Shown piece after piece: positions 15,917 through 33,447 of a DNA stretch of 64,000 bases. Every line of letters starts with the position of its first letter. The stretch's first letter is position 1. Under the pieces are notes generated by a model that had not been told where the DNA came from, made no database searches, and saw nothing but the letters and a program-made list of their open reading frames with translations. This DNA comes from an uncultured Ectothiorhodospiraceae bacterium (GTDB lineage Bacteria; Pseudomonadota; Gammaproteobacteria; S012-40): assembly GCA_945787715.1 (NCBI GenBank), contig CALZJE010000003.1, positions 6,088 to 70,087 of the forward strand. Reading direction: 5' to 3'. The position numbers were made by a program, and so were the translations under genes.

Positions 15917-16143
15917 GTGTTTATAAATTGGATGCTAGACGTTTACTCTGTCCGATGCCGGTAATTCGTACTCAGAATAAAATAAAAACACTTAAAGCGG
16001 GAGACACACTGGAAGTAATTTGTACTGATCCAGGCGTACTTCAAGATATCCCTGCTTGGTGTAGAATTAATGGACATAAGTTTCTGAGTCACGAAACAGT
16101 TGATGAAGAAATTATTTTAAAAATAGAGGTGGGCGAAGATTGA
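15904..16143 (+). CDS. TusA/SirA-family sulfur carrier protein
   Basis: 79 aa. LDARRLLCPMPVIRTQNKIKTLKAGDTLEVICTDPG has the CPxP active-site motif. Uses a GTG start and overlaps the upstream gene by 13 nt. Confidence 0.75.
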   Translation: MASVSVYKLDARRLLCPMPVIRTQNKIKTLKAGDTLEVICTDPGVLQDIPAWCRINGHKFLSHETVDEEIILKIEVGED

Positions 16144-17303: not shown

Positions 17304-17422
17304 TCTATATTGGTGCTAATTGGTTTCTGCATGTGTTTTTTTAGTGCGCTTATTAATATTTACTATAATTTATAAACGGATTTTGTTAATTAAGCTATTG
17401 TTATAAATAAGTAATTGTGTAT

Positions 17423-17438
17423 TGGCATATGTAATGCT
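17423..17438 (+). promoter_or_regulatory. Sigma-54 (-24/-12) promoter of glnA
   Basis: TGGCAT-ATGTA-ATGCT with GG and GC exactly 12 nt apart, about 59 nt upstream of the glnA ATG. Confidence 0.7.
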
Positions 17439-17496
17439 TAAATAAACAAAATTAAAATTTTAAAGTGTCTCCAATTTTATTTTAAAGGGTGAGAAA

Positions 17497-18903
17497 ATGC
17501 CGTCTAACGTTTTAAAGATGATGAAAGAATTTGAAGTGAAGTTTGTTGATTTTCGCTTCTCAGATACTCGCGGTAAACAAATGCATTTAACAGTTCCAAG
17601 TACAGCTGTTGATGAAGATTCATTAAAAGAAGGGATGATGTTTGATGGTTCTTCAATCAATGGTTGGAAGGGCATCAATGAGTCAGACATGATTTTGATG
17701 CCAGATCCAAGTACTGCGACAATGGATCCTTTCACTGAAGATTCAACGTTAAACATCGTATGTGATGTTGTTGAGCCAGCCACTATGTCTGGTTATGAGC
17801 GTGATCCTCGTTCTGTTGCTAAACGTGCAGAAGAATTTTTGAAATCTACAGGTATTGCAGATACCGCTTTCTTCGGTCCTGAAAATGAGTTTTTTGTGCT
17901 TGATGACGTTCGTTGGGGTGCTGATATGTCAGGCTCTTTTTGTAAAATAGATTCAGAAGAAGCAGAGTGGAACTCAGAAAAAGTTTATGCCGACGGTAAC
18001 ATGGGCCATCGTCCAGGTACTAAAGGCGGTTACTTCCCAGTACCACCAGTCGATTCTTTGTATGACTTGCGCTGTGCTATGACTACTGCGCTTCAGGAAA
18101 TGGGGCAAGAAGTTGAAGTGCATCATCATGAAGTAGCAACAGCTGGTCAATGTGAGATTGGTGTTAAATTCAACACATTAGTTTCAAAAGCTGACGAAGT
18201 TCAAGATCTAAAATATGTAATTCATAATGTATCGCATGTATATGGCAAGACAGCGACTTTTATGCCTAAGCCGATGGTTGGCGATAATGGTAATGGTATG
18301 CATGTTCACATGTCTCTTGCAAAAAATGGCGAGAATCTTTTTTCTGGTGATGAGTACGGTGGTCTATCTGAAACTGCACTTTTCTACATTGGTGGAATTA
18401 TTAAACATGCGCGTGCAATCAATGCTTTCGCAAATGCTTCGACAAATAGCTACAAACGTTTGGTCCCAGGATTTGAAGCACCAGTTATGCTAGCTTACTC
18501 TGCACGTAATCGTTCTGCTTCTATTCGTATTCCTTATGTCACAAACCCTAAAGGGCGTCGTATCGAAGTACGATTTCCCGATTCAACAGCAAACCCCTAT
18601 TTAGCGTTTGCTTGTATGTTGATGGCTGGTCTTGATGGAATTAAGAACAAAATCCATCCTGGTGATGCAATGGATAAAGATCTATACGATCTTCCACCAG
18701 AAGAAGAGAAAGAGATCCCACAAGTATGTTTTTCTTTCGATCAAGCATTAGAAGCACTAGATAAAGATCGTGAATTTTTAACTGCTGGTGGTGTATTTAC
18801 TGACGACATGATCGATGCTTATATTGATTTGAAAATGGAAGAAGTAACACGTTTACGCATGACAACTCACCCAGTTGAGTTTGATATGTACTATAGCTGT
18901 TAA
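17497..18903 (+). CDS. glnA: Glutamine synthetase type I
   Basis: 468 aa. [15 protein letters not shown], the [19 protein letters not shown] motif, the adenylylation-loop region NLYDLPPEE and ASIRIP. Confidence 0.97.
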
Positions 18904-18923
18904 TTTATTCTTTATTTTGTTTG

Positions 18924-18953
18924 AAAAACGCCCCTTTACGGGGCGTTTTTTTT
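18924..18953 (+). terminator. Rho-independent terminator after glnA
   Basis: AAAAACGCCCC-TTTAC-GGGGCGTTTTTTTT. Confidence 0.85.
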
Positions 18954-19043
18954 GCTGCTGAATTCTTTGATATTGCGTAGAATTATTGAGTAATAATTTC
19001 ATCAACTATTGAATCATTTAGTGACTTTATTGAGGTCAGCACA

Positions 19044-19595
19044 TTGCGAATAACTTTTCTAATACTGTTTTTCTTTTCAGCAAAACTCTCTGCTGCGGTC
19101 TACCAATACCAGGACGAAAATGGAAAGATAGTATTCACAGATAAAGAAGTACCTGGTAGCGTAGAGCGCAAAGTTCAATCACCACCTATAATTAAATTTC
19201 GCAAAGAAGAACAGGTTAAAAAAGAAATAGCGCCAACAGATAATAGTTTTACTGATATTACTGTTACAGAAAATAAAAACAAACCTAAGCCGTATACAAA
19301 ATTTAAAATTAGAAAACCGGTTGATGATGACAATTTTCGCGATAACTTAGGAAACGTACATCTGCAATTAGATATTTCACCTGGGATTCAAACTCAACAT
19401 GGTCATAAGCTCAAGGTTGAGTTTGATGGAAAAATGTTAACGGGTAGTTGGACCAGTTCAACTATCTCTTTTTTTAATGTGAATCGGGGTACTCATACAA
19501 TCCGTGCTTTCATTGTAGATAAAGCTGGTAAAAAAATTAAATCAACAAATACCAACACATTTCATCTACAACGGTTTTCGAAACTATTTCGTTAA
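19044..19595 (+). CDS. DUF4124-domain secreted protein
   Basis: Signal peptide MRITFLILFFFSAKLSA followed by VYQYQDENGKIVFTDK, which is DUF4124-like. Uses a TTG start. Confidence 0.6.
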   Translation: MRITFLILFFFSAKLSAAVYQYQDENGKIVFTDKEVPGSVERKVQSPPIIKFRKEEQVKKEIAPTDNSFTDITVTENKNKPKPYTKFKIRKPVDDDNFRDNLGNVHLQLDISPGIQTQHGHKLKVEFDGKMLTGSWTSSTISFFNVNRGTHTIRAFIVDKAGKKIKSTNTNTFHLQRFSKLFR

Positions 19596-19646
19596 TCCAC
19601 TTTCACGCGCTTCATCTGCACAATCTTTTTGTATGATTCTTATTCG

Positions 19647-19663
19647 CGCACTATAATGGTGCG
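19647..19663. promoter_or_regulatory. NtrC-type binding-site candidate upstream of ntrB
   Basis: CGCACTA-TAA-TGGTGCG compared with the enteric NtrC consensus TGCACCA-N3-TGGTGCA. Confidence 0.5.
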
Positions 19664-19758
19664 TTGTTAAAATGCGGAATTCGTATATCCCATCTCTGTG
19701 CTTGATATTTTGAATATTGCGATTGTTAACACACTGTTTTTATTCGTGATTATTTAAA

Positions 19759-20886
19759 ATGGTCGATGCGTCTTTTATTGGTTTAACTATTGCAGAGAAG
19801 TTAAATATGGTGCCGAACGAAAAGTGTAATAATTCAATATCAAAAGATTTGCTATACGCAAATATGTCTACAGCGTTGTTGCTGTTAGATGCAAATATGA
19901 AAGTTGTTGAAGCGAATCAAGCGACTGAAAATTTGCTCAATACCAGTGCAAGGCGAATTAAAGGTCTAGATGTTCATCAATTATTTGCAGGATCAGAAGC
20001 CTTTTTAAGTGCGCTCAAGCAAAGTAAGAATAATAAATTCAATGTCACTAAAAGCGAATTAGATCTACTCGTTCCTCATCTGTTACGTGTCATCAAAGTT
20101 GATTGTATTTTTTCACCAATCATCGAAAACGAACAAATTTTGATTGAGATGACGCAAATAGATGAAAAATTACGCGCGGCCAAAGAAGAGCATATTATTG
20201 AGCAGCAGGATGTTTTAAAAATATTGGTGAGAGGTTTTGCTCATGAGGTAAAAAATCCTCTCGGCGGAATTAGAGGCGCCGCACAATTACTTGAACGTGA
20301 GTTACCCTTCGATGATTTGAAAGAATATACCGACGTTATTATTGGTGAAACTGATCGCTTGCAAAAGTTGGTTGATGACATGCTGGGTCCAAATCGACCG
20401 ATGTCTAAAGAACCTGTCAATATACACAAGGTAATCGAACGAGTTCGTCAACTTGTTTTAGCTGAATCGGATGGAAAGTTGATATTCCGTCGCGATTATG
20501 ACCCAAGCTTACCGGAGATTTTTGCAGATTCAGATCAACTCATTCAATCCGTTTTGAATATAGTTCGTAACGCTAAGCAAGCAATGAATGGTGAAGGCGA
20601 AATTGTTGTTCGAACACGTTCAAGACACCATGTAATGATTGGACAAAGACATCATCGCTTGGTTGTTGGTGTAGAAATTATTGATAACGGGCCAGGGATT
20701 GCGCCTGATCTTTTAGACAAAATATTTTATCCAATGATTACCGGTCGTGCTGAAGGTACTGGGCTAGGTTTATCAATAGCCCAGACATTGATTGGCCAAC
20801 ACGGCGGTATTATTGAATGTAATAGCAAGCCTGGAGAAACAAACTTTACGTTGTTGATTCCAATTAATGCTAAGGAAACGGTGTAA
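19759..20886 (+). CDS. ntrB: Nitrogen regulation sensor histidine kinase NtrB
   Basis: N-terminal PAS domain, H-box FAHEVKNPLGGIRGAAQLL, N/G boxes IVRNAKQA and DNGPGI..GTGLGLSI. Directly precedes ntrC. Confidence 0.9.
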   Translation: MVDASFIGLTIAEKLNMVPNEKCNNSISKDLLYANMSTALLLLDANMKVVEANQATENLLNTSARRIKGLDVHQLFAGSEAFLSALKQSKNNKFNVTKSELDLLVPHLLRVIKVDCIFSPIIENEQILIEMTQIDEKLRAAKEEHIIEQQDVLKILVRGFAHEVKNPLGGIRGAAQLLERELPFDDLKEYTDVIIGETDRLQKLVDDMLGPNRPMSKEPVNIHKVIERVRQLVLAESDGKLIFRRDYDPSLPEIFADSDQLIQSVLNIVRNAKQAMNGEGEIVVRTRSRHHVMIGQRHHRLVVGVEIIDNGPGIAPDLLDKIFYPMITGRAEGTGLGLSIAQTLIGQHGGIIECNSKPGETNFTLLIPINAKETV

Positions 20887-20891
20887 ATATA

Positions 20892-22307
20892 ATGGCAAAA
20901 AAAGAACATATTTGGGTCATTGATGACGACAAATCAATTCGCTGGGTGTTAGAGCGTGCTTTAAGCAAAGCGGATATGGATGTTGATTGCTTTGAAAGCG
21001 CTTCAGGTATTCTCGATAAACTATCAAAAGGATTACCGGATGCGATAGTTTCGGATATTCGCATGCCAGGACAAGATGGTTTGGCGCTTCTTTCAGACAT
21101 TAATAAAGCTTATCCTGATCTCCCAGTAATCATTATGACGGCTCACTCCGATCTGGACAGTGCGGTATCGTCCTATGAAGGCGGTGCATTTGAATATTTG
21201 CCTAAACCCTTTGATGTTGACGATGCAGTTGATCTGGTAAGACGAGCAGTGGATCATAGTAGAAGTGCTACTACTAACGTCAGTGAACAAACTGAAGCTA
21301 CACAAACAGAAATTATTGGCGAAGCAGCAGCGATGCAGGAAGTGTTTCGAGCGATTGGGAGATTATCTCGTTCGAATATCACCGTTATGATAAATGGTGA
21401 ATCTGGGACGGGTAAGGAGCTTGTTGCGAGTGCACTTCATCGCCATAGTCCAAGAGCGTCTAATCCTTTTATCGCACTAAATACCGCTGCTATTCCAAAA
21501 GATTTATTGGAATCAGAACTATTTGGTCACGAAAGAGGTGCTTTTACTGGCGCGCAAACAACACGACGTGGCCGTTTTGAACAGGCTGATGGCGGAACAT
21601 TGTTTCTTGATGAAATTGGTGATATGCCCGCCGATTTACAAACTCGGCTTTTGCGGGTTTTAGCATCTGGAGAATTCTATCGGGTTGGTGGTCATGATCC
21701 CGTTAAAGTCAATGTTAGAATTATTGCAGCCACACACCAAGACCTGGAAGAGCGAGTAGGTAAAGGAAAATTCAGGGAAGACCTATTTCATCGTTTAAAT
21801 GTTATACGTATACATTTACCCGCCTTACGTGAAAGGCAAGAAGATATTCCACTATTGTTAAACTATTTTCTCGTTCGAGCAGCGAAGGAATTAAGTGTTG
21901 ATGTAAAAAGATTAAGGCCTGAAACTGCAAAGTTTTTGAGTCAGTTACAGTGGCCAGGTAATGTAAGACAGTTAGAAAATGTGTGCCGCTGGTTAACTGT
22001 GATGGCCCCAGGTCCTGAAATTCATGTAGAAGATCTTCCGGCGGAATTAAGAGAAGATGTGGTTAAAGCAAGCAGCAATTCTGATTGGGAAGGCGCTTTA
22101 AAGCTTTGGGCAAAAAGCAAGCTCTTGGCAGATGATCAAGGTATTATGGAGAATGCGACTCCCAGGTTCGAAAAAATATTGATAGAAGTTGCTTTAGCGC
22201 ATACCGCTGGGCGAAAACAGGAAGCTGCTAAATTGCTCGGAATTGGTAGAAATACACTGACGAGAAAGTTGAAAGAACTCAAAATAATTAGTGACGATGC
22301 AGCGTAA
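20892..22307 (+). CDS. ntrC: Nitrogen regulation response regulator NtrC (sigma-54 activator)
   Basis: Receiver domain (VIDDD..SDIRMPG..LPKP), AAA+ domain [14 protein letters not shown] loop, C-terminal Fis-type HTH. Confidence 0.93.
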
Positions 22308-22631
22308 CACTAGCTCCTGGCTATCTCCACTAACCGGTGAACTTGTACAGCAATCAAACCAATTCCTTGCACTCCAATCTCATACTCAACGGATCTTTTA
22401 AGATTTATCTTATCGGTTCCATTCCCGTATTAAACTTAGAAAAAAGTAGATTCATGAAATATACTCTGAGGGCTGTAACCCAACCCTTGTTTCGCCTAGC
22501 GATATGAAAAGCAATACTTTGTGTTTTTTTGATAGCCAGCTGCCTTTTCTAGGATAAGCCTAGAAAAATCAGTTGATCCGTGATTTAGCGCACAACCACT
22601 TGATTCACTTGGCAATATGAAAAGTATTTGA

Positions 22632-22648: not shown

Positions 22649-22736
22649 CATAAATATTTTCATTACGCCAATCAAACCGCACACTTGCATGCTAATTTCG
22701 CATCCAACAGATCTTTCTAGGTTAAACGTTTTTAGC

Positions 22737-22836: not shown

Positions 22837-22852
22837 TGGCATTCATTCTGCT
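22837..22852 (+). promoter_or_regulatory. Sigma-54 (-24/-12) promoter of the five-gene cassette
   Basis: TGGCAT-TCATT-CTGCT with GG (22838-39) and GC (22850-51) 12 nt apart. It lies 56 nt upstream of ATG 22908, which has the SD AAAGGAG. Confidence 0.7.
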
Positions 22853-22907: not shown

Positions 22908-23627
22908 ATGCATGATTTAGATCAGACCCAACTCGATTATAGCCGTGCAGAGTTTGATGATGACGAGTTTGAGTTAGAAGGGGAGTTCGAAAATGATATG
23001 GCTGTGTCAGGTGCTGATGAATATGAGGATGAGGATGAGTTTGAAAGTGAATATGAGTTCGAATCCAACTTTGATGGAAACAGTCCTTTTAGTGAAGCAG
23101 AGGAAATGGAGCTTGCTGCGGAATTAATGGAAATTGCAGACGATGGGGAATTGGAATATTTTCTAGGTAGGCTGATTAAACGCGGCGCTCGACGGGTTGG
23201 TCGTAGGCTACGTAAACGTGTAGGTACACGGTTGAGAAAGGGGTTAAAAAGACTTGCTAAACGCGGTTTGAGATTCGCAGGTGGAGCTGTTGGTGGTGCG
23301 TTAGGTGGTCCTGTTGGAGCCGTGGTAGGACGAGCTGCGGGTCGTGGATTGGGAAAAGTGTTTGGACTTGAATTAGAAGGTATGAGTCTGGAAGACCAAG
23401 AGTTTGAAGCAGCGCGTCAATTTGTTCGGCTTGCAGGTGATGCTACCTCTACTGCAACAGCAATTCCCTCTTCTGTTAATGAAGAAGTTGTTGCTCACAA
23501 GGCGCTGAAAAGATCAGTGGTAAAATTTGCACCGGGACTCGCAGGTAAAACCAGACGCTCTGTTCGTGGAGAAAAATCTGGACGCTGGGTTCGTAAAGGT
23601 TCTAGCATCATTCTAATGGGTGTTTGA
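22908..23627 (+). CDS. Tripartite acidic / poly-cationic / glycine-zipper protein (candidate pro-toxin or pro-peptide)
   Basis: 239 aa. Residues 1-85 contain 35 D/E and one Arg (DEYEDEDEFESEYEFES). Residues 88-122 contain 18 R/K and no acidic residue (RLIKRGARRVGRRLRKRVGTRLRKGLKRLAKRGLR). Residues 123-153 contain 12 Gly (AGGAVGGALGGPVGAVVGRAAGRGLGKVFG). The tail is basic (..GRWVRKGSSIILMGV). Strong SD; first gene after the sigma-54 promoter. Confidence 0.7.
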   Translation: MHDLDQTQLDYSRAEFDDDEFELEGEFENDMAVSGADEYEDEDEFESEYEFESNFDGNSPFSEAEEMELAAELMEIADDGELEYFLGRLIKRGARRVGRRLRKRVGTRLRKGLKRLAKRGLRFAGGAVGGALGGPVGAVVGRAAGRGLGKVFGLELEGMSLEDQEFEAARQFVRLAGDATSTATAIPSSVNEEVVAHKALKRSVVKFAPGLAGKTRRSVRGEKSGRWVRKGSSIILMGV

Positions 23628-24946
23628 GTCCCATGACTACCCCGCTGGTACGACAAGTTCTGAGCAATGAGACTCAAGCACTGATGGCTCGTCTCAGAGG
23701 AATTAAGCCGTTTTCCTTACATGTGCCGATGGTTGCTGCCGCTGCTTTGCAAACTTCAGCTCAACAATTGATAGAGCAGCATATGCACAGGGTATTGTCG
23801 TCAGTCGCTCAGATGCTCGGAACATATGAAGACTGGTTAAATAGTGAGGCGGGGCGTCGAACCAAAGATGCCACTGCACAGCGACATCTAACACTGGTGA
23901 GATTGCGTTTCCATGCAGCATTGACGCAGTTTGATCTTTTTTCAGATGTACTTACTCAGCGTAGTGAACATGAGTTTGGTGTCTGGCTCGCTGGACTTGA
24001 TGCACTAGCAGTGGATGCATTAAAAATAGAAGGAAAATACTTCGAACTGCCAGGTGTCGCGTGTTATCTAGATCGAGGAATAGGTGCTGCTATTCGACGG
24101 GTACGTACACGCTTACCTGGCGGGCGTGAAAATCCTGTTGCTATAATTCGAGTTCCTCGTGAGCGGATGATTGGCTCAGGCATCGCTTCATCGTTGGTTC
24201 ATGAAGTCGGGCATCAGGGTGCTGCGTTGCTAAACCTTGTGGAATCATTACGAAAGGAATTGCAGAGAAAAATTCATTCTGACGGATCGCCGTGGCGTTT
24301 ATGGCAACAATGGATATCAGAAATCATTGCTGACTTTTGGTCTGTAGCGCAGATCGGTGTGGGTTCTACTTTGGGTTTAATGGGTGTTGTTAGCTTACCG
24401 CGTGCATTTGTATTTAGAATTAGTGAAGAGGATCCTCATCCTTCACCGTGGATACGAGTCATGTTGAGTGCATCGATTGGCCAAGCCCTTTATCCGGATT
24501 CTCAATGGCGTCGTCTTCGTGAAGTTTGGATGCGTCTTTATCCGCGCACAGGTATCGATCCGGAAAAGGAACAACTGTTTCAAGGTTTGGAAGCTACGAT
24601 ACAGGAGTTTGTTGAGTTATTAACTCAACATCGGCCACGAACACTAGAAGGGATATCATTGTTAGAAATTTTCCCTGTTTCAGATAGACAACCAGATCGG
24701 TTAAGAAACTTATATGGTCAATGGTCAGGGAGGTTTAACGCTTGGCGCACCTCGTCCCCGGCGTTAGCGTTTGCCGTTATCGGACAAGCACGCGCTGATG
24801 ATCGACTAAGTGTATCAGATGAATCGAATCTTATTAATAGACTATTAAACCATTGGGCATTCAATCGAAATGATTTAAATAATCAATGCGGATGTAGACC
24901 TAAGGCGAATGCATATTCAACTGCAGTTATATCTACTGCGTTATAA
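23624..24946 (+). CDS. Orphan HExxH (gluzincin-like) putative metallopeptidase
   Basis: 440 aa. SSLVHEVGHQG (H193-H197, nt 24200-24214) with a candidate third ligand E233 in WISEIIADFW. The TTG 23624 / ATG 23633 start overlaps or abuts the upstream stop, which suggests translational coupling. Confidence 0.55.
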   Translation: MSPMTTPLVRQVLSNETQALMARLRGIKPFSLHVPMVAAAALQTSAQQLIEQHMHRVLSSVAQMLGTYEDWLNSEAGRRTKDATAQRHLTLVRLRFHAALTQFDLFSDVLTQRSEHEFGVWLAGLDALAVDALKIEGKYFELPGVACYLDRGIGAAIRRVRTRLPGGRENPVAIIRVPRERMIGSGIASSLVHEVGHQGAALLNLVESLRKELQRKIHSDGSPWRLWQQWISEIIADFWSVAQIGVGSTLGLMGVVSLPRAFVFRISEEDPHPSPWIRVMLSASIGQALYPDSQWRRLREVWMRLYPRTGIDPEKEQLFQGLEATIQEFVELLTQHRPRTLEGISLLEIFPVSDRQPDRLRNLYGQWSGRFNAWRTSSPALAFAVIGQARADDRLSVSDESNLINRLLNHWAFNRNDLNNQCGCRPKANAYSTAVISTAL

Positions 24947-24957
24947 GGAGTCTTGTA

Positions 24958-26826
24958 ATGAAACAAATAGATAATATATCGATTATACAATCTCACCATG
25001 CCGTAGTGCCGGACGGTGCAGTTTCTCTACGCTTATCAGAGAACTATGTAGATGTAACAAAGTACACATATATTTGGCGTACTCCTGAATCGTTGGGTGA
25101 GTTTAATTATATTGATCAACCCAATGTTATATGGACCGCTCCATTAAAAGCAGCAGGTGTGGTAGAAATAAGCGTAGAGATTATGCCTAAAAGCGGACAG
25201 AGTGGAGGTAAGAAACGCAATACACGTGCTTCATCGGAAAATTCCACGGCTGAATCTACACATCTCGAAAATATAGAGACAATAATCATCTCAACTACGG
25301 TGGAAGTTACGCCAAATGCTTTGCCTTTAGATGTAGTTGGTGCGATTGGAGAAGGTGTTAAGGCTATCAAAGAGGGTCTACCCGGTCAGGAAATACGTTT
25401 GGAGCGACAATTTCCTGCGCTTACGCCTCAAAAATCATTGTGGGCTATTATTCGCGACCGTACCAATGCAATTTCATTTAACAATTACAAAGCATTTATC
25501 GACTCGATTATGTGTGGCGGTGATACCTATCACAGCAAACAGATTCCCCATGAAGTTAAAGAATATGTCAATTTTGATCCGAGTAAATTGCACTACCGAG
25601 GTACCGAGTCGTATGAGGTTTTACGAAAAGCGACAGAAGCATTTCTGATGCATGAAATTGGTGCTTTACCCACTCCCGTAAATGAATCTGAAAAATTTCC
25701 CTTAGCAGACCCTGCTGAACAAAAACGGCGTTTACCACAACTCGCGGGTTCAAATGACGAAGAAGTTCAAATGGAAATGGAAAGTAATCGAACTGAATAT
25801 TTAAAAACATTGGAAGACGAAAGTCGGACCTTTCCTTATTTTAAACTTATCCGCGATCGTTTAAGTGAGATACCCCTTAAACCTCCTGGCTCATCAGGAG
25901 AAGGATGTTATGGATTATTGCGTTCGCGAATTTCACCACCAATTTTACTAGAATTAATCTGGTCTTATTGGCACGAAGAAGGAGGTTTGGTGCAAACAAT
26001 GAAAGCCATTAATATGCGCTTTCAGAACCGTTTATATAATCCACGTAAAAATGGGAGCGATCCGTTGGCTAATCTTAACTTGGATCCGTTACGTCCTATG
26101 AGCAATATTATTTGGGGATATATTCAAAATGAGCACGAGCATTTAACGTTATCAAGACGCGCTTATGAATACGATCATCATTATGGATTCAGTATCGCCG
26201 GAAAGGCAGTACCCAAACTCAACTCTGCCGATAGCCGTACTAAATTTTTAGAGGCGTTTCACAGTCTTCTTCATCGTGCCTCGGTGTTTTACAAAGAGCA
26301 ATCTGATACAACTAAAGTACCCGATGGTTATCCGTTGCTAAATGGATTGAAGGAATGTCATTTGTTGCTGGCTGAAGGTGCACATAACCAATTTGGTGAT
26401 TTACCCTGGACAGCGCGTATTGAAATGCTCATCGAGCAATGGATGTTAGCGCGGCCAGAAACACGGAATTTTTTGAACCGACGAGTGATGGTGCCTTACT
26501 CAGAAGAGTGGATGCCAGCGGTTGATCAAATGAAAGACTTGCAAGGTTGGTCAGGTGGTACCGTGCGTCATTTTCGAGATCTAGGAACGTTCGGTGAACA
26601 AATCTTGTTGTCAGTACGTTATGGAGATTGGAGTGAAAATTTTAATGAAGATGAAGCCAAAATCTGGGCTCAGTATTGGCGACAGGAGATTCAAGGTTAT
26701 ATCAATGCGTATCGTTCAGTAACGAGTGTAGACTTGGGATCGGATGCAGATCTGGCAAATGCTACGCTATCTCGTCAACGATCGACTGCACCTGCCGAGT
26801 TATTGAAACAGCAAGGTACTCGTTGA
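24958..26826 (+). CDS. Large hypothetical protein, no recognisable domain
   Basis: 622-aa uninterrupted ORF with SD AAGGAG 7 nt upstream. An N-terminal ~75-aa beta-rich module and a Ser/Gly/Lys linker are followed by a Trp/His-rich helical body (LLELIWSYWHEEGGLVQTMKAINMRFQN). Confidence 0.6.
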   Translation: MKQIDNISIIQSHHAVVPDGAVSLRLSENYVDVTKYTYIWRTPESLGEFNYIDQPNVIWTAPLKAAGVVEISVEIMPKSGQSGGKKRNTRASSENSTAESTHLENIETIIISTTVEVTPNALPLDVVGAIGEGVKAIKEGLPGQEIRLERQFPALTPQKSLWAIIRDRTNAISFNNYKAFIDSIMCGGDTYHSKQIPHEVKEYVNFDPSKLHYRGTESYEVLRKATEAFLMHEIGALPTPVNESEKFPLADPAEQKRRLPQLAGSNDEEVQMEMESNRTEYLKTLEDESRTFPYFKLIRDRLSEIPLKPPGSSGEGCYGLLRSRISPPILLELIWSYWHEEGGLVQTMKAINMRFQNRLYNPRKNGSDPLANLNLDPLRPMSNIIWGYIQNEHEHLTLSRRAYEYDHHYGFSIAGKAVPKLNSADSRTKFLEAFHSLLHRASVFYKEQSDTTKVPDGYPLLNGLKECHLLLAEGAHNQFGDLPWTARIEMLIEQWMLARPETRNFLNRRVMVPYSEEWMPAVDQMKDLQGWSGGTVRHFRDLGTFGEQILLSVRYGDWSENFNEDEAKIWAQYWRQEIQGYINAYRSVTSVDLGSDADLANATLSRQRSTAPAELLKQQGTR

Positions 26827-26863: not shown

Positions 26864-27694
26864 ATGATAATGTTTGAAGATGGAGATTACGATGATTTAC
26901 GTGAGGAAAAGTTTCTGAACTGGCCAGAAAGGAACAGACCTCCACGCCTAAAAAGTCGGATTGCTGCCCTACATCGTTCTTATTCGCCTGATCCAGTAGG
27001 TCGGGTTCAGCGTAATAACTCAATACGATCAAAAGATGATATGGTGGAATTTAATTTTTCAGGTTTAGAAGTAGACGGATTTATTTCACGAGAGGTAGAA
27101 GATGAACAGTTTCTAAATTATTTATGGCCATTCTCATCAGATCCCAATATTGTGGATCGCACAGCTTATTCACCTAAGTCTAAGCGAAAGAAAATTCGAG
27201 ATATTGATACAGTTTATGCACTGGTTTTACATCAAGCAGGCTTTAGTCGTGGAAATGATCCTAAAAAATATAATAATGTGACTTCTCATTTTGTCATTAT
27301 GCCAAACGGAACTATTCTTCAACTCCACCCTTTGACTGCCTATTTATATTCTTCCAATGGGTTTAATCGGGGTAGTGTAGCTGTTGAATTTATCGGTAAT
27401 TTTCCTAGCGAGCGTGGCAGATGCTGGAAACCTGAAAAGTATGGTTGTAATCAGGTTTCAAACGATCAAATTGAGGCAGGTCGACAATTAATTAGATATT
27501 TAAGGAAAAAAATAGGGCTGACTCACGTGTTGGCGCACCGTCAATCGAGTGGTTCGAGAGGCAATGATCCGGGGCCAGACCTTTGGCACCAAGTTGGGCA
27601 ATGGGGTGTAAATAAGCTAGGGCTAAATGATGGGGGGCATGGTTTTAAAATTCAGTCGGGTAAGGCAATTCCTGATTCATGGCGTAAAACTTAG
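26864..27694 (+). CDS. N-acetylmuramoyl-L-alanine amidase, amidase_2 (AmpD/PGRP/T7-lysozyme) fold, no signal peptide
   Basis: YALVLHQAGFS (first His ligand), GSVAVEFIGNF, and LAHRQSSGSRGNDPGPDLW (His, then Asp 10 residues later, followed by DPGP). About 110 aa of unassigned N-terminal extension precede the domain. The likely start is ATG 26870, downstream of AGGAGG. Confidence 0.8.
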   Translation: MIMFEDGDYDDLREEKFLNWPERNRPPRLKSRIAALHRSYSPDPVGRVQRNNSIRSKDDMVEFNFSGLEVDGFISREVEDEQFLNYLWPFSSDPNIVDRTAYSPKSKRKKIRDIDTVYALVLHQAGFSRGNDPKKYNNVTSHFVIMPNGTILQLHPLTAYLYSSNGFNRGSVAVEFIGNFPSERGRCWKPEKYGCNQVSNDQIEAGRQLIRYLRKKIGLTHVLAHRQSSGSRGNDPGPDLWHQVGQWGVNKLGLNDGGHGFKIQSGKAIPDSWRKT

Positions 27695-27730
27695 ATCGAA
27701 AAACCATTAAATATAATCATTGAAGGAAAA

Positions 27731-28645
27731 TTGGTGAGAGATATGAGGTCTTATGAAGAACTAAGTAGAGTTTCCCATGAAAATGGCAAAGATAAAGAGT
27801 TTTATTATAAGTCGAAGGTTAGACCGGTTTCTAATTCTATGGGTGATTTTAGTCAACAGGAAATTGTTGACGATTTTGACGATAGAAAAAGACTTGGCAG
27901 TATCAAAGATACACCTTATAGGTGGATATGCATGCTGGATTTGCACACAAAAAGTGGATTATTTGGTGGGACTGGAGTACTCATTTCCCCCAGACACATT
28001 CTTACGGCTGGGCATAACCTAGATGGTTGTAATAAAGTAGTAGTGGTGCCTGGAATTAATGGTCGCTTCAAGCCATTTGGAAGTTACGAATCTACAACGA
28101 TGATTGCCCACGATAAATGGAAAAAACATAGAGACGATAATTTTGATATTGGCATGATAAAACTTTCCAAACCGGTTGGGAATCAAAGGTTTAATTCAAT
28201 AAAGGGAAATGTTCTGGGTCATTGGGGACATTCTGCTTTCGGAATGGGTACGAGAATTATACCATTTGTGCAGAGCAATCAATTAAACAAAAAAGCAAAT
28301 ATTGCTGGTTATCCAAGTGATAAAGGATTTACGCAGCTTTGGTGGGATGCGGGTAAAATTGTCAATACCGCGCCTGCCAAAGCATCAGGAGCAATCTATT
28401 ACACTATGGATACATGTGGTGCTCAAAGTGGAAGTCCAGTTTGGTTAAGAAGTAAAAGTTCAGGAGCAAGATTTTTAATTGCTATACATAGTGGTCCATG
28501 TTTATTAGATGGCTCAGATTGCAAAGAATTATCTGGAAAGCTTTGTCCCGGTAGTAGTTTACGTAAACCACACTCTTCTAATATGGGGGTATTTTTAACA
28601 GCGGGACTAATTAAGACGATTAGAAGTTGGATTCGCTCTATGTAA
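27731..28645 (+). CDS. S1B (V8-like, COG3591-type) trypsin-fold serine endopeptidase, no signal peptide
   Basis: Catalytic triad contexts ILTAGHNL (His), NFDIGMIKL (Asp) and DTCGAQSGSPVW (Ser, GxSGSPV as in V8/SspA). The likely start is ATG 27746. Confidence 0.8.
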   Translation: MVRDMRSYEELSRVSHENGKDKEFYYKSKVRPVSNSMGDFSQQEIVDDFDDRKRLGSIKDTPYRWICMLDLHTKSGLFGGTGVLISPRHILTAGHNLDGCNKVVVVPGINGRFKPFGSYESTTMIAHDKWKKHRDDNFDIGMIKLSKPVGNQRFNSIKGNVLGHWGHSAFGMGTRIIPFVQSNQLNKKANIAGYPSDKGFTQLWWDAGKIVNTAPAKASGAIYYTMDTCGAQSGSPVWLRSKSSGARFLIAIHSGPCLLDGSDCKELSGKLCPGSSLRKPHSSNMGVFLTAGLIKTIRSWIRSM

Positions 28646-28735: not shown

Positions 28736-30085
28736 TTATGAATGATTTTCTTGTTGCTTGCGCAACTGTAGCGCTCGCGGCGTAATTTTTAATTGCTTTG
28801 CAATCTTCGCGGTAGAGCCATTATGTTCAGCCATAGCAACATCGATAGCAACATCGGCGGCAGCACTACTAATTTCTTTTAAGCCCACGCCCAGTGAGAG
28901 TGCTTTACGAACAGCGGCTTCAAGATCTCCACGGCGCCAGTCACTCGTTTCTCTTGTGATGTTTTGAAATTCATCGTGGGGTATATCACCGATCGTATAT
29001 TGGCCGTCGCAAACATGACGGCCTCGCATGCGTAAGCAAAGCTGTCGAAGATCACGAATATTACCAGGATAAGCACGATTAATGAGATGGTGCTGTACGG
29101 CTGAGTCGAGTTCTGGATTTATATCATTTTGATGACGGAGGAAATGTTTAGCTAACGATAGAATGTCTTCCTTACGTTGTGAAAGTGATGGCAGCGTAAC
29201 GGTCCAATCTGCGAGACGGTAATAAAGATCACGGCGAAAACGCCCTGCTTCAATTTCTTCTAATAAATTTCGATTTGTAGCGCAGACTAGTCTGAAATCG
29301 GTGTCATGCCATGTGTTGCCACCGACTCGTTTGTAACGTTTTTCTTGAAAAACGCGTAGCAGTTGCACTTGAAGATCCAATGGCAACTCGCCGACTTCGT
29401 CTAGAAATAAGACACCACCGTCGGCCCGCGAAAATGCTCCTTCACGTTGACTACCTGCTCCGGTAAAAGCACCGCGCTCGTGACCAAAAAATTCACTGCC
29501 AGATAGGCTTGGGACAATGGTGGCACAATCTACTATGCTAAGTTCCTGCTGACTACGCAGAGGATCTACGGAATGAATAACTTTTGCAGCGAGTTCTTTT
29601 CCTGTTCCCGTTTCACCGTTAATTAAAACTGCATAATCACTAAATCTCGCGGCTTCAACAATTTGCCTTAAGGCCATTAGCCAAGGTATGCTGTGGCCAA
29701 TGACGATATCTTGTATTTCTGGGGAATTAGTGATTTTATTTACTCTCTCCCAACGACGAAGACGTACTGCAATATGGTCAGCTGTTTTACCTTCGTTGTC
29801 CCATAAGACGACGTCACTCGCGCCAGCTTCAATCAAACGATATACATCGTTACTATTTAGGTAGTCTGGGTTTGTGGTTACTGCGATAACGCGCTGTTGG
29901 GTTCTACAAGAGAATTTAGAAATACAGCTATATACATTGTCATCGGCATGATCGAATACGATAATCGCGGCTTTCGCATTATCTTTTGTATCGTCAATAC
30001 AAAAAATCACGCCTCGATTAATGAGGATTTGATGGATCGAATCGCGATTCACTACACCCAAGCAATTTAGGACTGTCCGTGTCAT
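28736..30085 (-). CDS. Sigma-54-dependent transcriptional activator (bEBP) with atypical receiver-like N-domain
   Basis: AAA+ domain with GETGTGKE, an intact GAFTGA loop ([13 protein letters not shown]), Walker B LFLDEVGEL, and a C-terminal HTH (STAKIAKQLKITPRALQLR). The N-terminal ~120 aa are receiver-like, but VLWD replaces the K-P motif. Convergent with the cassette. Confidence 0.9.
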   Translation of the reverse strand: MTRTVLNCLGVVNRDSIHQILINRGVIFCIDDTKDNAKAAIIVFDHADDNVYSCISKFSCRTQQRVIAVTTNPDYLNSNDVYRLIEAGASDVVLWDNEGKTADHIAVRLRRWERVNKITNSPEIQDIVIGHSIPWLMALRQIVEAARFSDYAVLINGETGTGKELAAKVIHSVDPLRSQQELSIVDCATIVPSLSGSEFFGHERGAFTGAGSQREGAFSRADGGVLFLDEVGELPLDLQVQLLRVFQEKRYKRVGGNTWHDTDFRLVCATNRNLLEEIEAGRFRRDLYYRLADWTVTLPSLSQRKEDILSLAKHFLRHQNDINPELDSAVQHHLINRAYPGNIRDLRQLCLRMRGRHVCDGQYTIGDIPHDEFQNITRETSDWRRGDLEAAVRKALSLGVGLKEISSAAADVAIDVAMAEHNGSTAKIAKQLKITPRALQLRKQQENHS

Positions 30086-30631: not shown

Positions 30632-31096
30632 ATGTTTATCGTCGCTCTATACGAACCAGAAATCCCACCCAATACAGGAAATATTATTCGGCTTTGTTCA
30701 AATATCGGAGCTGAACTCCACTTGATAAAACCGCTGGGTTTTGATCTGGATGATAAAAAATTACGTCGAGCTGGATTGGACTATAGTGAGTGGGTGGATG
30801 TTAAAATCCACGAAAACTACGATACTTTTCTTGAGTCATTAGGCTCATCACGGATATTTGCATGTTCAACTCACGGTACTAAACGTTATACTGATATGAG
30901 CTATCGAGATGGGGATGTTTTTTTATTTGGGCCAGAGACTCGAGGTTTACCGAAAGAATTACGGTTGGATTTTCCACCAGATCAAGTGATAAAACTCCCT
31001 ATGGTGCCGAATAATCGAAGCCTGAATTTATCTAATGCAACTTCAATTATTTTATATGAAGCGTGGCGGCAGTTAGACTTTATAGGAGCAGAGTAA
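30632..31096 (+). CDS. trmL: tRNA (cytidine/uridine-2'-O-)-methyltransferase TrmL (SpoU family)
   Basis: 154 aa. ALYEPEIPPNTGNIIRLCSNIGAELHLIKPLGF and LFGPETRGLP. Confidence 0.88.
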   Translation: MFIVALYEPEIPPNTGNIIRLCSNIGAELHLIKPLGFDLDDKKLRRAGLDYSEWVDVKIHENYDTFLESLGSSRIFACSTHGTKRYTDMSYRDGDVFLFGPETRGLPKELRLDFPPDQVIKLPMVPNNRSLNLSNATSIILYEAWRQLDFIGAE

Positions 31097-31101
31097 AATG
31101 G

Positions 31102-32304
31102 CTATTCAGCTTCGATAATTGAAGCGGTTTCGTCACCAGTTTTAAAGTTGAAATTATACTCTGTACTATTTTTGCCTGACTTATCTGTTACAACCAAAGA
31201 GAACTTATGCTCACCTGCGGTTAGAGGAGCTTTCACGCCCTGGCTTTGTAGTGTGGTAAATTCCTTGGTTACCCTTTCGAATAGATTCAAAATTTCTTCA
31301 GTTTGAGGGTTTTGAAAATAAAGACCTTTCCCAGCTTCTGCAATTGCAGTTAAGCTTTGATCATCAATTTTTTCGCCAAGCCCAATAACATGCACAGTAA
31401 GATTATCAATATTACTTATTTTATTGAGGATCGTTGTCAGTGAAGTTTCTATTCGACCTGACATTAGGTATTCCGCTCCACTCGATGTAACAAAAGGATT
31501 GGGGTTTTGATCGGTGAAAGAACTGTTATCAAATTGACTATAATTGTCTGCGCCATCGGAAAAAACAAGCATCACATTTTGATGATTATTTTCTGTATCT
31601 TCTTCACTGGTTTGACTATTAATCAATTCATCCAATGTGTAATCGATAGCTGCATAAAGTTTTGTATACGTTCCATCAACTGGGCTGGGAATAGTTGTGA
31701 TATCCAGCGGTGACCAGTTTCTATTTTCATTATTCACTGCATAATAAATATATGAGTCGAACCAACTGGATTGAAAAGTGAAATCGCCGGTGCGGTTTTT
31801 CCAGAGTTCTTGGCCGGTTTGTACGCTTTTTTGAGCCGCTTGTAACATTAGCTCAAAAGATTGATTAACTTTCATTGAGTAGCTTGTGTCGAGAACCAGA
31901 TTATAATGAACATTGTACGCGAGTTCTCGTGCACTACTGCTCAAATGGTACTCGACATCAAAGTCTTCATCATCGATTTTTAGCTCTACATCGATTTGAT
32001 CAGGTGTGAGTGGGAGATTATTGTCAGTTCTCGGAATGAATTGCAGAACTATATTAGTAGTACCATGATCTCTGTCGTAGCTTATTGTTGGTTTAGTTAC
32101 CAAATCTATTTTAACATTGCCCGAATAGTTACCTTGATTTTCAGTTTCTGAATCTTTGGGTTCCGTTTCTAACTCATTTTGATCTTTATTCTTTTTTTGT
32201 TTATCAATCTCATTGAGATTACCACCACCACAGGAAATAAGTGCGAACGTAAAAAGCATTACTATTACTAAATCATGGCATTTTACTAGCGTTGTTTTTT
32301 GCAT
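31102..32304 (-). CDS. von Willebrand factor A-domain lipoprotein
   Basis: Lipobox FALISC|GGG. MIDAS-like LVLDTSYSM, then MLVFSDGADN and VHVIGLG. Confidence 0.65.
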   Translation of the reverse strand: MQKTTLVKCHDLVIVMLFTFALISCGGGNLNEIDKQKKNKDQNELETEPKDSETENQGNYSGNVKIDLVTKPTISYDRDHGTTNIVLQFIPRTDNNLPLTPDQIDVELKIDDEDFDVEYHLSSSARELAYNVHYNLVLDTSYSMKVNQSFELMLQAAQKSVQTGQELWKNRTGDFTFQSSWFDSYIYYAVNNENRNWSPLDITTIPSPVDGTYTKLYAAIDYTLDELINSQTSEEDTENNHQNVMLVFSDGADNYSQFDNSSFTDQNPNPFVTSSGAEYLMSGRIETSLTTILNKISNIDNLTVHVIGLGEKIDDQSLTAIAEAGKGLYFQNPQTEEILNLFERVTKEFTTLQSQGVKAPLTAGEHKFSLVVTDKSGKNSTEYNFNFKTGDETASIIEAE

Positions 32305-32427
32305 GCTAACCTCAAAGAGTTTCTTTAATAAAAAATAGATTTATTTTGGGCCTATTAAAACAAAGACTATCCATTTAGACAAAAGTTTATCTTTTAAATG
32401 GGAATATATTCGAGGCGAAATGGGTTA

Positions 32428-33447
32428 TTAAATTTCAGCGCGAATTTCACGATTCAATAAATCATGACCAGCCTGTTTTGCAGATTTATTTTGATAAAGG
32501 ACTTCGTATACTTGCTCGACAATGGGCATTTGAATCCCCATTTTATTCGATAGCAGGTATACTTTTTCAGCAGTTTCCACACCCTCTGCTACTTGTCCCA
32601 ACTCATCGAGTATTTGTGATATCGATTTGCCTTGTGCTAAACCTAAGCCTACACGACGATTTCTTGATTGATTGTCTGTACAAGTAAGTACTAAATCACC
32701 CAGCCCAGCAAGACCCATAAACGTTTCTTGATGGGCCCCAAGAGCGACACCTAGGCGAGAGATTTCTGCCAATCCTCGCGTAATAACAGCAGTGCGAGTA
32801 TTTGCGCCGAAGCCTAAGCCGTCTGCTATACCTGCTGCGATTGCAATAACATTTTTTACAGCACCGCCTATTTCAACGCCAATCACATCAGAACTTGTAT
32901 ATGCACGAAAATGATCGTTGGTTAACCATTTCGCATATTTTAATGCAAACGCCTCATCCTCTGAGGCAACAGTTACAGCTGTTGGCAATTCATGTGCAAC
33001 TTCTTTGGCAAAGGTTGGCCCAGATATGATGCAAAGTTTAAGATCATCACCCAGTACTTCATGTACAACTTCGTGTAGAAGCTTTAAGCTTTCTGGCTCC
33101 AATCCTTTGGTCGCAATTGCAATTCCCATGTGGGGCTTATAATAGGGTTTTATTTGTTCAAGACTATTTCTAAAACCTTTTGAAGGTACAGCCATTAGAA
33201 TGGAATTTACGCTTTCTAAGGCTTTTTCAAGATTTGCTTCAGGCTGTAACATTAATGGAAAAACAATATCGGGCAGATAAGTTTCGTTTCTACGATCATC
33301 TGCCATTTTTGAGACTCGGTCAGAGTTTCTTCCCCAAAGGAAAGTTTTGTGACCATTACTAGCAAGAAGCACAGCTAAAGCTGTGCCCCAAGATCCTGCA
33401 CCTAAAACAGCGACTGAATTATTTTGCATATAGCTCGGAGATTTCAT
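32428..33447 (-). CDS. gpsA: NAD(P)H-dependent glycerol-3-phosphate dehydrogenase
   Basis: VAVLGAGSWGTALA Rossmann motif, GAVKNVIAIAAG and SRNRRVG. Confidence 0.95.
   Translation of the reverse strand: MKSPSYMQNNSVAVLGAGSWGTALAVLLASNGHKTFLWGRNSDRVSKMADDRRNETYLPDIVFPLMLQPEANLEKALESVNSILMAVPSKGFRNSLEQIKPYYKPHMGIAIATKGLEPESLKLLHEVVHEVLGDDLKLCIISGPTFAKEVAHELPTAVTVASEDEAFALKYAKWLTNDHFRAYTSSDVIGVEIGGAVKNVIAIAAGIADGLGFGANTRTAVITRGLAEISRLGVALGAHQETFMGLAGLGDLVLTCTDNQSRNRRVGLGLAQGKSISQILDELGQVAEGVETAEKVYLLSNKMGIQMPIVEQVYEVLYQNKSAKQAGHDLLNREIRAEI

Follow-up and report, generated by a model that had tools for sequence, protein, structure and literature searches.

A leaderless amidase and a V8-like protease in the payload slot of a widespread, predicted sigma-54-gated bacterial cassette

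Why should a peptidoglycan amidase and a serine protease, neither of which carries a signal peptide, be encoded side by side, and how might such enzymes gain access to a wall? The question is raised by positions 26864-28645 of a 64,000-nucleotide (nt) stretch from an uncultured Ectothiorhodospiraceae bacterium (GenBank assembly GCA_945787715.1, contig CALZJE010000003.1, positions 6,088 to 70,087 of the forward strand), which is here called the window. An earlier note, made from the sequence alone, had described these two genes as a pair. The amidase and the protease are not free-standing; they occupy the variable payload slot of an operon of five co-directional open reading frames (ORFs), which specify three core proteins (P1, P2 and P3), the amidase and the protease, and which is followed by a convergent gene for a sigma-54 activator. 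The cassette of the window consists of the following features (aa, amino acids; pLDDT, predicted local distance difference test):

22537..22575, plus strand: candidate upstream activator site, the palindrome CAGCTGCCTTTTCTAGG-N5-CCTAGAAAAATCAGTTG (inverted repeats I5, I4)
22837..22851, plus strand: sigma-54 type -24/-12 promoter, TGGCATTCATTCTGC, 57 nt 5' of the P1 start
22908..23627, plus strand: P1, core protein of 239 aa, of a family conserved across the cassettes
23624..24946, plus strand: P2, core protein of 440 aa (public gene call: start 23633, 437 aa)
24958..26826, plus strand: P3, core protein of 622 aa (predicted model with a pLDDT of 86.6)
26864..27694, plus strand: payload 1, zinc N-acetylmuramoyl-L-alanine amidase of the Amidase_2/PGRP superfamily, probable start 26870
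27731..28645, plus strand: payload 2, S1B (V8-like) serine protease, assigned from Pfam, PDB relatives and motif positions
28736..30085, minus strand: sigma-54 enhancer-binding protein of 449 aa (Sigma54_activat, 3.1e-56), convergent

The earlier note had already spoken of a cassette, and one is indeed present; what it had missed is the nature of the cassette, a sigma-54-gated and phylum-spanning operon with a slot for exchangeable payloads. A profile scan with one genome per species found at least 566 carriers, which belong to most bacterial phyla. They include members of the Actinomycetota, Acidobacteriota, Myxococcota, Planctomycetota, Verrucomicrobiota, Chloroflexota and Clostridia as well as Hymenobacter, Massilia, Nitrosomonas and Cupriavidus; the last four, together with Nocardiopsis, Microbulbifer and Paraburkholderia phymatum, are cultured carriers. 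Of 82 related loci (designated here by L-numbers) all contain P3, 79 contain P2, 76 contain P1, which is often present twice, and 63 contain the activator. The gene order in these is nearly always P1-P2-P3, a slot of 0.8-9 kb, and the activator, which is convergent. The core families are large, with at least 5,431 homologues of P2, at least 4,451 of P3 and 1,877 representatives of P1 at 50% identity, and the identity of the core proteins is about 50% across phyla. The closest relative of the window's cassette is L083, the P3 of which is 78% identical. The most completely aligned amidase homologue (P0005, 62% identical over 97% of the amidase) has the same neighbours, in locus L001: a 238-aa P1 (52% identical to that of the window), a 416-aa P2 (52%), a 569-aa P3 (42%) and an activator (45%). 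Between P3 and the activator, L001 encodes aminotransferase-like, PG_binding plus VldE, amidase, M15_3, M20 and Amidohydro_2 proteins.

A Pfam census of 124 slot ORFs from the related loci revealed PG_binding_1 (27), M20 (13), PG_binding_3 (11), Trypsin (8-9), OmpA (7), Amidase_2 (7), VanY (5), GNAT (3) and M74 (2), and one each of muramidase, M23, CHAP, M15_3, 3D and PLD. The slot is filled mainly with peptidoglycan-directed domains. In addition, an Amidohydro_2-like protein occurs in 39 loci, where its gene is usually the last ahead of the activator, and an aminotransferase-like protein in 26, usually directly 3' of P3 (examples of these genes are L001:13953-14780, L011:4553-5305 and L004:11729-12838); both are near-core in the family yet absent from the cassette of the window. 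Some cassettes have a single payload: the amidase alone in Microbulbifer (L085) and Nocardiopsis (L038), and one divergent protease in L083. Since slots are so varied, and may hold one payload, the amidase and protease of the window represent one of many payload combinations. A trypsin-like payload occurs in about 12 of 80 related cassettes (~15%). In L074 the best homologues of both enzymes of the window are adjacent, each with a PG_binding_1 domain, and in a member of the Chthoniobacterales (L032:10099-11820) Amidase_2 (residues 61-220) and Trypsin (351-517) domains form part of one 573-aa polypeptide. To judge by these two loci the pairing of amidase and protease is not arbitrary, and they argue for functional coupling of the two.

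The amidase matches Pfam Amidase_2 (PF01510) over residues 119-238 with an E value of 4.4e-12 and 46.9 bits against a cut-off of 26, and endolysin and amidase families of PHROGs match it as well. The amidase_2 landmarks cited in the earlier note, LVLHQAG (position 120), VAVEFIGNF (172) and AHRQSSGSRGNDPGPD (224), are all at the places given there, and Pfam confirms the family. The key residues are H123, E175, H225 and D235, so that the His/His/Asp zinc site described before, with 10 residues from the second His to the Asp, is confirmed by H225 and D235. Among 40 homologues H123, E175 and H225 are invariant and D235 is kept in at least 90%; this third zinc ligand is followed by P-G-P (DPGP). 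Judged by its residues the protein is an intact zinc amidase, the presumed target of which is the bond between N-acetylmuramic acid and L-alanine (MurNAc-L-Ala). Its start is most likely the ATG at 26870, which is well spaced from an AGGAGG at 26857-62 and corresponds to a public gene call of 274 aa. The N-terminal extension of ~110 aa proposed in the earlier note does not hold for residues ~82-118, which are conserved within the amidase's own subfamily and are thus no unrelated extension. The catalytic domain shares 50-77% identity with proteins of very distant phyla (Planctomycetes, Nocardiopsis, Myxococcota, Microbulbifer), and its relatives are often fused to PG_binding_1, VanY or PG_binding_3.

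Two observations concern the subfamily. It has a loop insertion of ~12 residues (GxCWxPxxFGC, residues 185-195) with two conserved cysteines, C187 and C195, which the nearest solved amidase (7f5i) does not possess; the loop could form a disulfide, a hint of an oxidising compartment, or a metal site. In the cyanobacterium Okeania (L086:4415-13865) an amidase of the same subfamily (E 7e-87) occurs in a different gene cluster, with a Transglut_core protein, a paralogous PG_binding protein and several uncharacterised proteins as neighbours and with P1, P2, P3 and the activator absent. Because it is found there without these four, the amidase is not exclusive to the cassette.

On the strength of the His/His/Asp site the enzyme had been likened to cytosolic AmpD, which our searches do not bear out. 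No AmpD model of NCBIfam matched it (E up to 0.1), and the profile of its family, compared with the PDB, found 7f5i, the phage endolysin LysT and PGRP-SD, all at ~1e-3, and no AmpD at E <=1e-3. Membership in AmpD was rejected at the sequence level, as neither model nor structure was matched. Asp is the third zinc ligand in the periplasmic amidase AmiD too, and is therefore not exclusive to AmpD. The context of the amidase, in the window as in L001, L085 and L087, is the P1-P2-P3 cassette and not a recycling context (ampE, ampG).

The protease matches Trypsin (2.2e-9) and Trypsin_2 (3.4e-7) in Pfam, and its triad is found in TAGHNL (position 92, H95), DIGMIKL (139, D139) and GAQSGSPVW (230, S233); H95, D139 and S233 are kept across 13 cassette proteases. 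The best solved relatives are the glutamyl endopeptidases Esp, V8 and 1p3c (E 2e-6 to 5e-4), and the best nine of ten PDB matches are glutamyl endopeptidases or V8, the similarity being weak, with roughly 25% identity over partial alignments. Triad, Pfam and PDB relatives thus agree with the S1B, V8-like assignment made before. The segments DTCGAQSGSP (T228) and AIHSG (H253) align with GNSGSP and GIH[YW]G, and T228 and H253 are presumably the equivalents of Thr190 and His213, the residues of the Glu pocket (S1). By these alignments the protein is an intact, divergent V8-like S1B enzyme which has kept the hallmarks of the Glu pocket. Its unassigned N-terminus, put at ~70 aa in the earlier note, comes to ~43 aa; a conserved mature-type N-terminus (I45-V-D-D...D-R) begins at I45, directly after E44. 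A Glu directly ahead of the mature-type N-terminus is conserved in all cassette proteases. The ~43 residues are a plausible propeptide, and the conserved Glu at -1 suggests that the protease probably matures itself by cutting after Glu44; for cleavage after Glu by this enzyme in general, the residue is only suggestive. The closest homologue, in L074, carries a PG_binding_1 domain.

That neither enzyme has a signal peptide, as the earlier note had stated, is supported by a crude test of hydrophobicity with 19-residue Kyte-Doolittle averages. The highest values were 0.97 for the amidase and 0.88 for the protease, compared with 2.0 for a lipoprotein control in the window, and no hydrophobic N-terminal stretch was found in either. 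Because both ORFs are already maximal, each beginning with the earliest start codon that follows a stop, neither can possess a Sec or Tat leader, and upstream in-frame starts with signal peptides, which the earlier note had named as a check, are ruled out. By the same measure none of the six cassette proteins of the window has a Sec or Tat signal or a segment that reaches transmembrane hydrophobicity. Among related loci a signal-like N-terminus was seen in 1 of 52 peptidoglycan-directed payload ORFs, and among 120 amidase homologues, taken with the gene calls of their sources, in two; no transmembrane segment was found in the P1 and P3 ORFs, and a small number of P2 and activator ORFs lay above the crude cut-off. 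The absence of export signals is a property of the families and of the whole system, not an artefact of annotation.

Many peptidoglycan-directed payloads elsewhere share an acidic-aromatic leader, M-x3-F-x-F-E-x-E-P-F-E-F followed by an acidic run, which is common to proteases, amidases, M74 and PG_binding proteins (L041:12533, L047:12644, L053:14206, L064:11584, L068:10167, L070:12810, L074:2376 and 4662, L032:8973 and 10099). A small hidden Markov model (HMM) of the leader matched 19 of the 52 peptidoglycan-directed payload ORFs, 17 of them its own seeds, and none of 77 metabolic-type payloads, none of 223 core proteins and 5 of 2,078 other ORFs. The leader could be a pro-peptide or a targeting signal. 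The amidase and protease of the window have acid-rich N-termini and do not match the leader HMM, nor did jackhmmer find an N-terminal targeting domain common to the two. A motif common to P1 and payload, ELxxFLG, was considered and dropped as not general (2 of 183); it recurs in the closest amidases.

If not Sec or Tat, what might the core proteins contribute? P1 is a protein of contrasting parts: residues 1-80, which are anionic (net charge -32, with 22 Glu), are followed by a cationic helix region at 81-120 (net +15), and G124-G151 constitute a glycine zipper with eight Gly at i, i+4. The 22-Glu region which the earlier note had ascribed to its protein 1 is confirmed by our count, all 22 lying within residues 1-84. 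Beyond the zipper come a conserved acidic helix and a conserved C-terminus, ...SGRWVRKGSSIILMGV (GRW-R-GxxIxLxGV). The acidic N-terminus is universal in the family (15-39 Asp plus Glu), and zipper runs of at least four occur in 68 of 99 family members, compared with 6 of 99 after shuffling; the zipper region also matches C19orf12 glycine-zipper and tape-measure segments weakly. Many members of the family are polyproteins of 2-4 modules and up to 1,036 aa (e.g. P0362-P0378), and a P1 module is fused once to PG_binding_1 (L070:12810-14753). Tandem pairs of P1 genes are seen in many loci, and in those of Massilia the payload slot contains a third, P1-like gene.

P2 contains an invariant H193-E-x-x-H197 plus E233, of the gluzincin type, and just ahead of the HExxH helix an invariant Arg-rich loop (R151, R158, R159, R161, R163, R179, R181). 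The AlphaFold 2 model of P2 has a pLDDT of 89, residues 155-162 falling below 50. The loop appears well suited to bind acidic pro-regions, and P2, with its invariant HExxH...E and its presence in 79 of the 82 loci, is the universal candidate for the processor of P1. A fold search with P2 gave zincin-type matches which were too weak for a firm fold assignment, and none was made. P3 begins with an Ig-like beta sandwich (about residues 1-117, window 24958-25310), which most of its homologues do not have, as they align only from about residue 145. Residues 124-621 form a large all-alpha domain with about 38 invariant residues. Structural neighbours in the PDB and among viral proteins were found for the Ig-like domain only; the alpha domain of ~500 aa has no neighbour in the PDB or BFVD.

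The sigma-54 holoenzyme does not transcribe without an activator, and the activator of this operon is presumably the product of the convergent gene. It consists of an N-terminal domain of ~125 aa, an AAA+ domain with GAFTGA and a C-terminal helix-turn-helix. Related activators have GAFTGA in 38 of 61 cases, the rest GSFTGA, GAYTGA or GAFT[SNH]A. The form GAFT[S/N/H]A, in which the last Gly of this sigma-54 contact motif is replaced, is systematic in Hymenobacter, the Verrucomicrobiota and some proteobacterial cassettes (L027, L045, L073, L056, L032, L047, L025, L064, L068). The N-terminal domain is conserved among the activators and has no match in Pfam and, in the PDB, weak ones to designed alpha/beta proteins only; its identification as a receiver was rejected on these grounds. 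The promoter TGGCATTCATTCTGC is the sole match to TGGCAYN5YTGC on both strands of the 64 kb, which alone is not significant (0.44 expected); the same element, for which the background is 0.05 per kb per strand, stands just 5' of the first P1 gene in 40 of 77 loci. A half-site related to the palindrome at 22537-22575 lies at 22705-22721, and three of the window's five TTTCTAGG matches fall within 176 nt here; that the palindrome binds the activator is something we only infer. Sigma-70-like promoters and terminators inside the operon did not exceed shuffled expectation.

In loci of the Actinomycetota and Chloroflexia and in the alphaproteobacterial L087 a complete rpoN gene lies beside the cassette (L005:4207-5601, L006:4695-6056, L031:3650-5437, L044:4962-6509, and, on the minus strand, L033:15183-16571 and L087:12609-13817). 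Of five such ORFs tested, all contain the Sigma54 CBD and DBD domains and three the AID. No rpoN was noticed in the window, where no search was aimed at it. The Actinomycetota have been reported to lack functional sigma-54 (PMC12316311). With rpoN beside it, the cassette looks like a portable unit in which sigma factor, activator and promoter are combined. Conserved across phyla as they are, the architecture, promoter and activator indicate that the operon is sigma-54-gated.

Apart from its enzymes and activator the cassette finds little counterpart in the family libraries. All P2 and P3 homologues are "hypothetical" and have no Pfam domain save an unrelated one fused to a single P3 homologue. 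P2 and P3 found no match in NCBIfam, PADLOC or PHROGs; P1 found only weak ones in NCBIfam and PHROGs (E 0.007 or worse), and no Pfam or NCBIfam family was assigned to it. In the defence models of PADLOC-DB v2, P1, P2, P3 and the amidase were without a match, the protease matched generic protease domains only (LmuA, 3e-6) and the activator only the AAA+ core of RtcR-type models. Identity with a known anti-phage defence system was rejected, as PADLOC models match none of the core proteins. The matches of the window to PHROGs are the amidase and, for the protease, one family without known function. No relative of P3 was found in the 2.9 million viral contigs of IMG/VR, and on plasmids the cassette occurs in four megaplasmids or chromids only. 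A phage origin was rejected, since P3 has neither a relative in the viral contigs nor a fold match in BFVD, and a plasmid-borne nature likewise, given those four replicons alone. Rfam gave no match to an RNA element in the window. The cassette is flanked by a probable glnA-ntrB-ntrC cluster (14858-22307), in which ORF 20892-22307 reads as NtrC-like and the other members are named from ORF sizes only, and by trmL/gpsA-like ORFs (30632-33447). Its G+C content (0.41-0.43) slightly exceeds that of the flanks (0.36-0.39), as would suit an accessory module that has been inserted.

What, then, does the cassette do? The reading which we prefer, tentatively and without calling it probable, is that of a tightly gated module for wall attack or autolysis that follows the logic of holin and endolysin. 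The amidase and protease would act together on the producer's own wall, the one on the MurNAc-L-Ala bond and the other on a wall-bound protein or peptide, and the core proteins, rather than Sec, would give them access to it. P1 would be a pro-protein, the anionic N-terminal piece of which masks the cationic helix and the glycine zipper; P2, as a zincin whose Arg-rich loop is invariant, would remove this piece, and the matured P1 would breach the cytoplasmic membrane. Wall enzymes would, through that breach, reach the peptidoglycan. The protease would activate itself by the cut after Glu44, and sigma-54 control would keep the whole set silent until the N-terminal domain of the activator senses a signal. 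The outcome would be autolysis or drastic remodelling of the wall of the producing cell, and might serve abortive infection, the release of cell contents or lysis in development. A broader proposition, about which we are somewhat more doubtful, is that P1, P2 and P3 might be a new, self-contained and Sec-independent machinery that activates wall enzymes, or delivers them from the cytoplasm to the peptidoglycan, by means of a protease-matured glycine-zipper protein rather than a holin or classical secretion; a sigma-54 activator of its own, joined in some phyla by a sigma-54 of its own, would gate it, and many of its enzymes would be marked by a leader.

Several points weigh against the proposed wall attack. 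The zipper of P1 peaks at a 19-residue average of 1.36 and is no true transmembrane segment, for which reason P1 is not a holin in the usual sense. No homology ties P1 to membrane action or P2 to cleavage of P1, and the model finds no use for P3, the most conserved of the proteins. The most frequent payloads, namely Amidohydro_2-like (39 loci), aminotransferase-like (26) and M20 (13), are metabolic enzymes of cytoplasmic type, and a simple lysis model does not explain a cassette such as L011, which carries an amidohydrolase alone. The leader on many peptidoglycan-directed payloads may speak for export or packaging rather than passive leakage. There is no clear association of the cassette with phages or mobile elements and, because it is absent from viral contigs and found, among plasmids, on the four megaplasmids or chromids only, it is not a phage-derived lysis cassette.

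Some of these points favour a different role, in which the enzymes stay in the cytoplasm, with soluble wall material such as muropeptides, UDP-MurNAc-peptides or lipid II as their substrate. They would either scavenge this material, in recycling or in nitrogen catabolism, the latter a fit with sigma-54, or deplete precursors and so halt the synthesis of the wall. Export signals are found nowhere in the system, the amidase resembles AmpD in its His/His/Asp zinc site with DPGP, and frequent payloads (aminotransferase-like, Amidohydro_2, M20, VanY) are of cytoplasmic type; moreover sigma-54 is classically tied to nitrogen limitation, and the cassette of the window adjoins glnA-ntrBC. We nevertheless consider a cytoplasmic role unlikely. 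Payload domains for polymeric peptidoglycan are numerous (PG_binding_1 27, OmpA 7, muramidase, M23, M74, CHAP, 3D), no cassette examined has a permease (AmpG, Opp), and the similarity of the amidase to AmpD is limited to the zinc ligands. The patchy distribution over phyla, the identity of up to 77% between distant ones and the swapping of payloads have the look of an accessory or conflict module and not of housekeeping recycling. For a catabolic operon there would be little need to bring its own sigma factor into the Actinomycetota, and P1, P2 and P3 would be left unexplained. Were the enzymes meant for competitors or prey, P1, P2 and P3 might form or serve a Sec-independent, leader-recognising route by which they are sent outside or into neighbours. 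No transmembrane segment, ATPase or outer-membrane component of such a route is present in the cassette, no cognate periplasmic immunity genes were seen, and a signal-like N-terminus is confined to one of the 52 peptidoglycan-directed payload ORFs. The shared leader does extend over several families of peptidoglycan-directed payloads and is absent from metabolic-type payloads and core proteins, but the window's own enzymes do not match its model and 17 of the 19 payload matches are the seed sequences of that model. Even with an exchange of effectors that resembles polymorphic toxin systems, and with many hosts that are soil bacteria of complex lifestyle, we give an exported weapon little credence.

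The earlier note had suggested a direct link within the operon, namely that a Glu-specific protease has the 22-Glu pro-region of P1 as its substrate; activation of P1 would then be the main reason for its presence. The protease has the equivalents of Thr190 and His213 and glutamyl endopeptidases as its best PDB relatives, 22 Glu lie in residues 1-84 of P1, and the two genes belong to one operon. The link is weak all the same, since the acidic N-terminus of P1 is universal while a trypsin-like payload is present in only ~12 of 80 loci, and cassettes exist with the amidase alone (L085, L038) or an amidohydrolase alone (L011). It is the HExxH protein P2 that co-occurs with P1, in 79 of 82 loci, and the PG_binding_1 domain of the closest protease homologue and the fusion of another to an amidase point to the wall as the site of action. 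We hold this explanation to be very improbable.

The enzymes alone are ordinary; their importance lies in the cassette. No description of it or of its core proteins was found in the literature searched, to which access was limited; papers on Lipocone, on NTP-dependent conflict systems, on RpoN3/AprX and on sigma-54 (2011) treat other systems or make no mention of it. With no description in the literature or family libraries, the system is therefore rated new, and the enzymes as new members of known families. If it is a gated device for wall attack or delivery, it would represent a new route by which muralytic enzymes are brought to the bacterial wall and a new kind of inducible lysis switch that is kept tightly off. 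It may also explain the isolated rpoN genes in the Actinomycetota, a phylum held to lack functional sigma-54 (PMC12316311).

Lysis cassettes and the Psp and Rtc modules resemble the cassette in logic only, and none of their defining components is present. Lysis cassettes of the phage type combine a holin with a leaderless endolysin, and have chromosomal derivatives in AlpBCDE of P. aeruginosa, the pyocin lysis genes and type 10 secretion. Here, too, signal-less muralytic enzymes are found beside a small protein that could breach the cytoplasmic membrane, and in both cases expression is tightly controlled because the products are dangerous. Unlike those cassettes, the present one has no transmembrane holin, but a 239-aa, soluble-looking pro-protein with a glycine zipper; two large conserved proteins, P2 and P3, are obligatory, sigma-54 and a dedicated activator exert the control, proteases, carboxypeptidases and metabolic-type enzymes are among the payloads, and viral contigs do not contain the cassette. 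With PspF/psp and RtcR/rtcBA it shares one dedicated activator for one adjacent operon with a -24/-12 promoter, and in PADLOC and NCBIfam the AAA+ core of the activator is nearest to activators of the RtcR/PspF type. In contrast to these modules the activator has an N-terminal domain that is not CARF and cannot be recognised as a receiver, the genes under its control are unrelated to psp or rtc, and the cassette carries its own rpoN into phyla lacking sigma-54.

The enzymes likewise resemble known ones in part. The amidase shares with AmpD and AmiD the Amidase_2 fold, the His/His/Asp site with its spacing of 10, D-P-G-P and the conserved Glu, and with AmpD the lack of a signal peptide; it differs from both in the two-Cys loop of ~12 residues and in relatives fused to PG_binding_1, VanY or PG_binding_3, and from AmpD in that its gene is part of a sigma-54 cassette and not beside ampE. 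The protease resembles V8/SspA of S. aureus, Esp of S. epidermidis and Bacillus 1p3c in its triad, in the Thr190/His213 equivalents and in an N-terminal propeptide ahead of a conserved I/V-rich mature N-terminus. Unlike these it lacks a signal peptide and has a conserved Glu at position -1, and among its relatives in cassettes there are fusions to PG_binding_1 and to an amidase.

For P1 the nearest parallels are precursors. Defensins are made as precursors in which an anionic propiece accompanies a cationic peptide; in P1, similarly, the acidic region could mask the cationic part, and the C-terminal peptide is the most conserved. Among prokaryotic conflict systems, peptide-processing systems composed of a zincin and a precursor have been described (Kaur et al. 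2020, PMC7159879); P2, with its zincin-like HExxH, beside the precursor-like P1 recalls that arrangement. Neither P1 nor P2 is related in sequence to those families, and P1, unlike the precursors of those systems, is conserved over its full length and is often a multi-module polyprotein.

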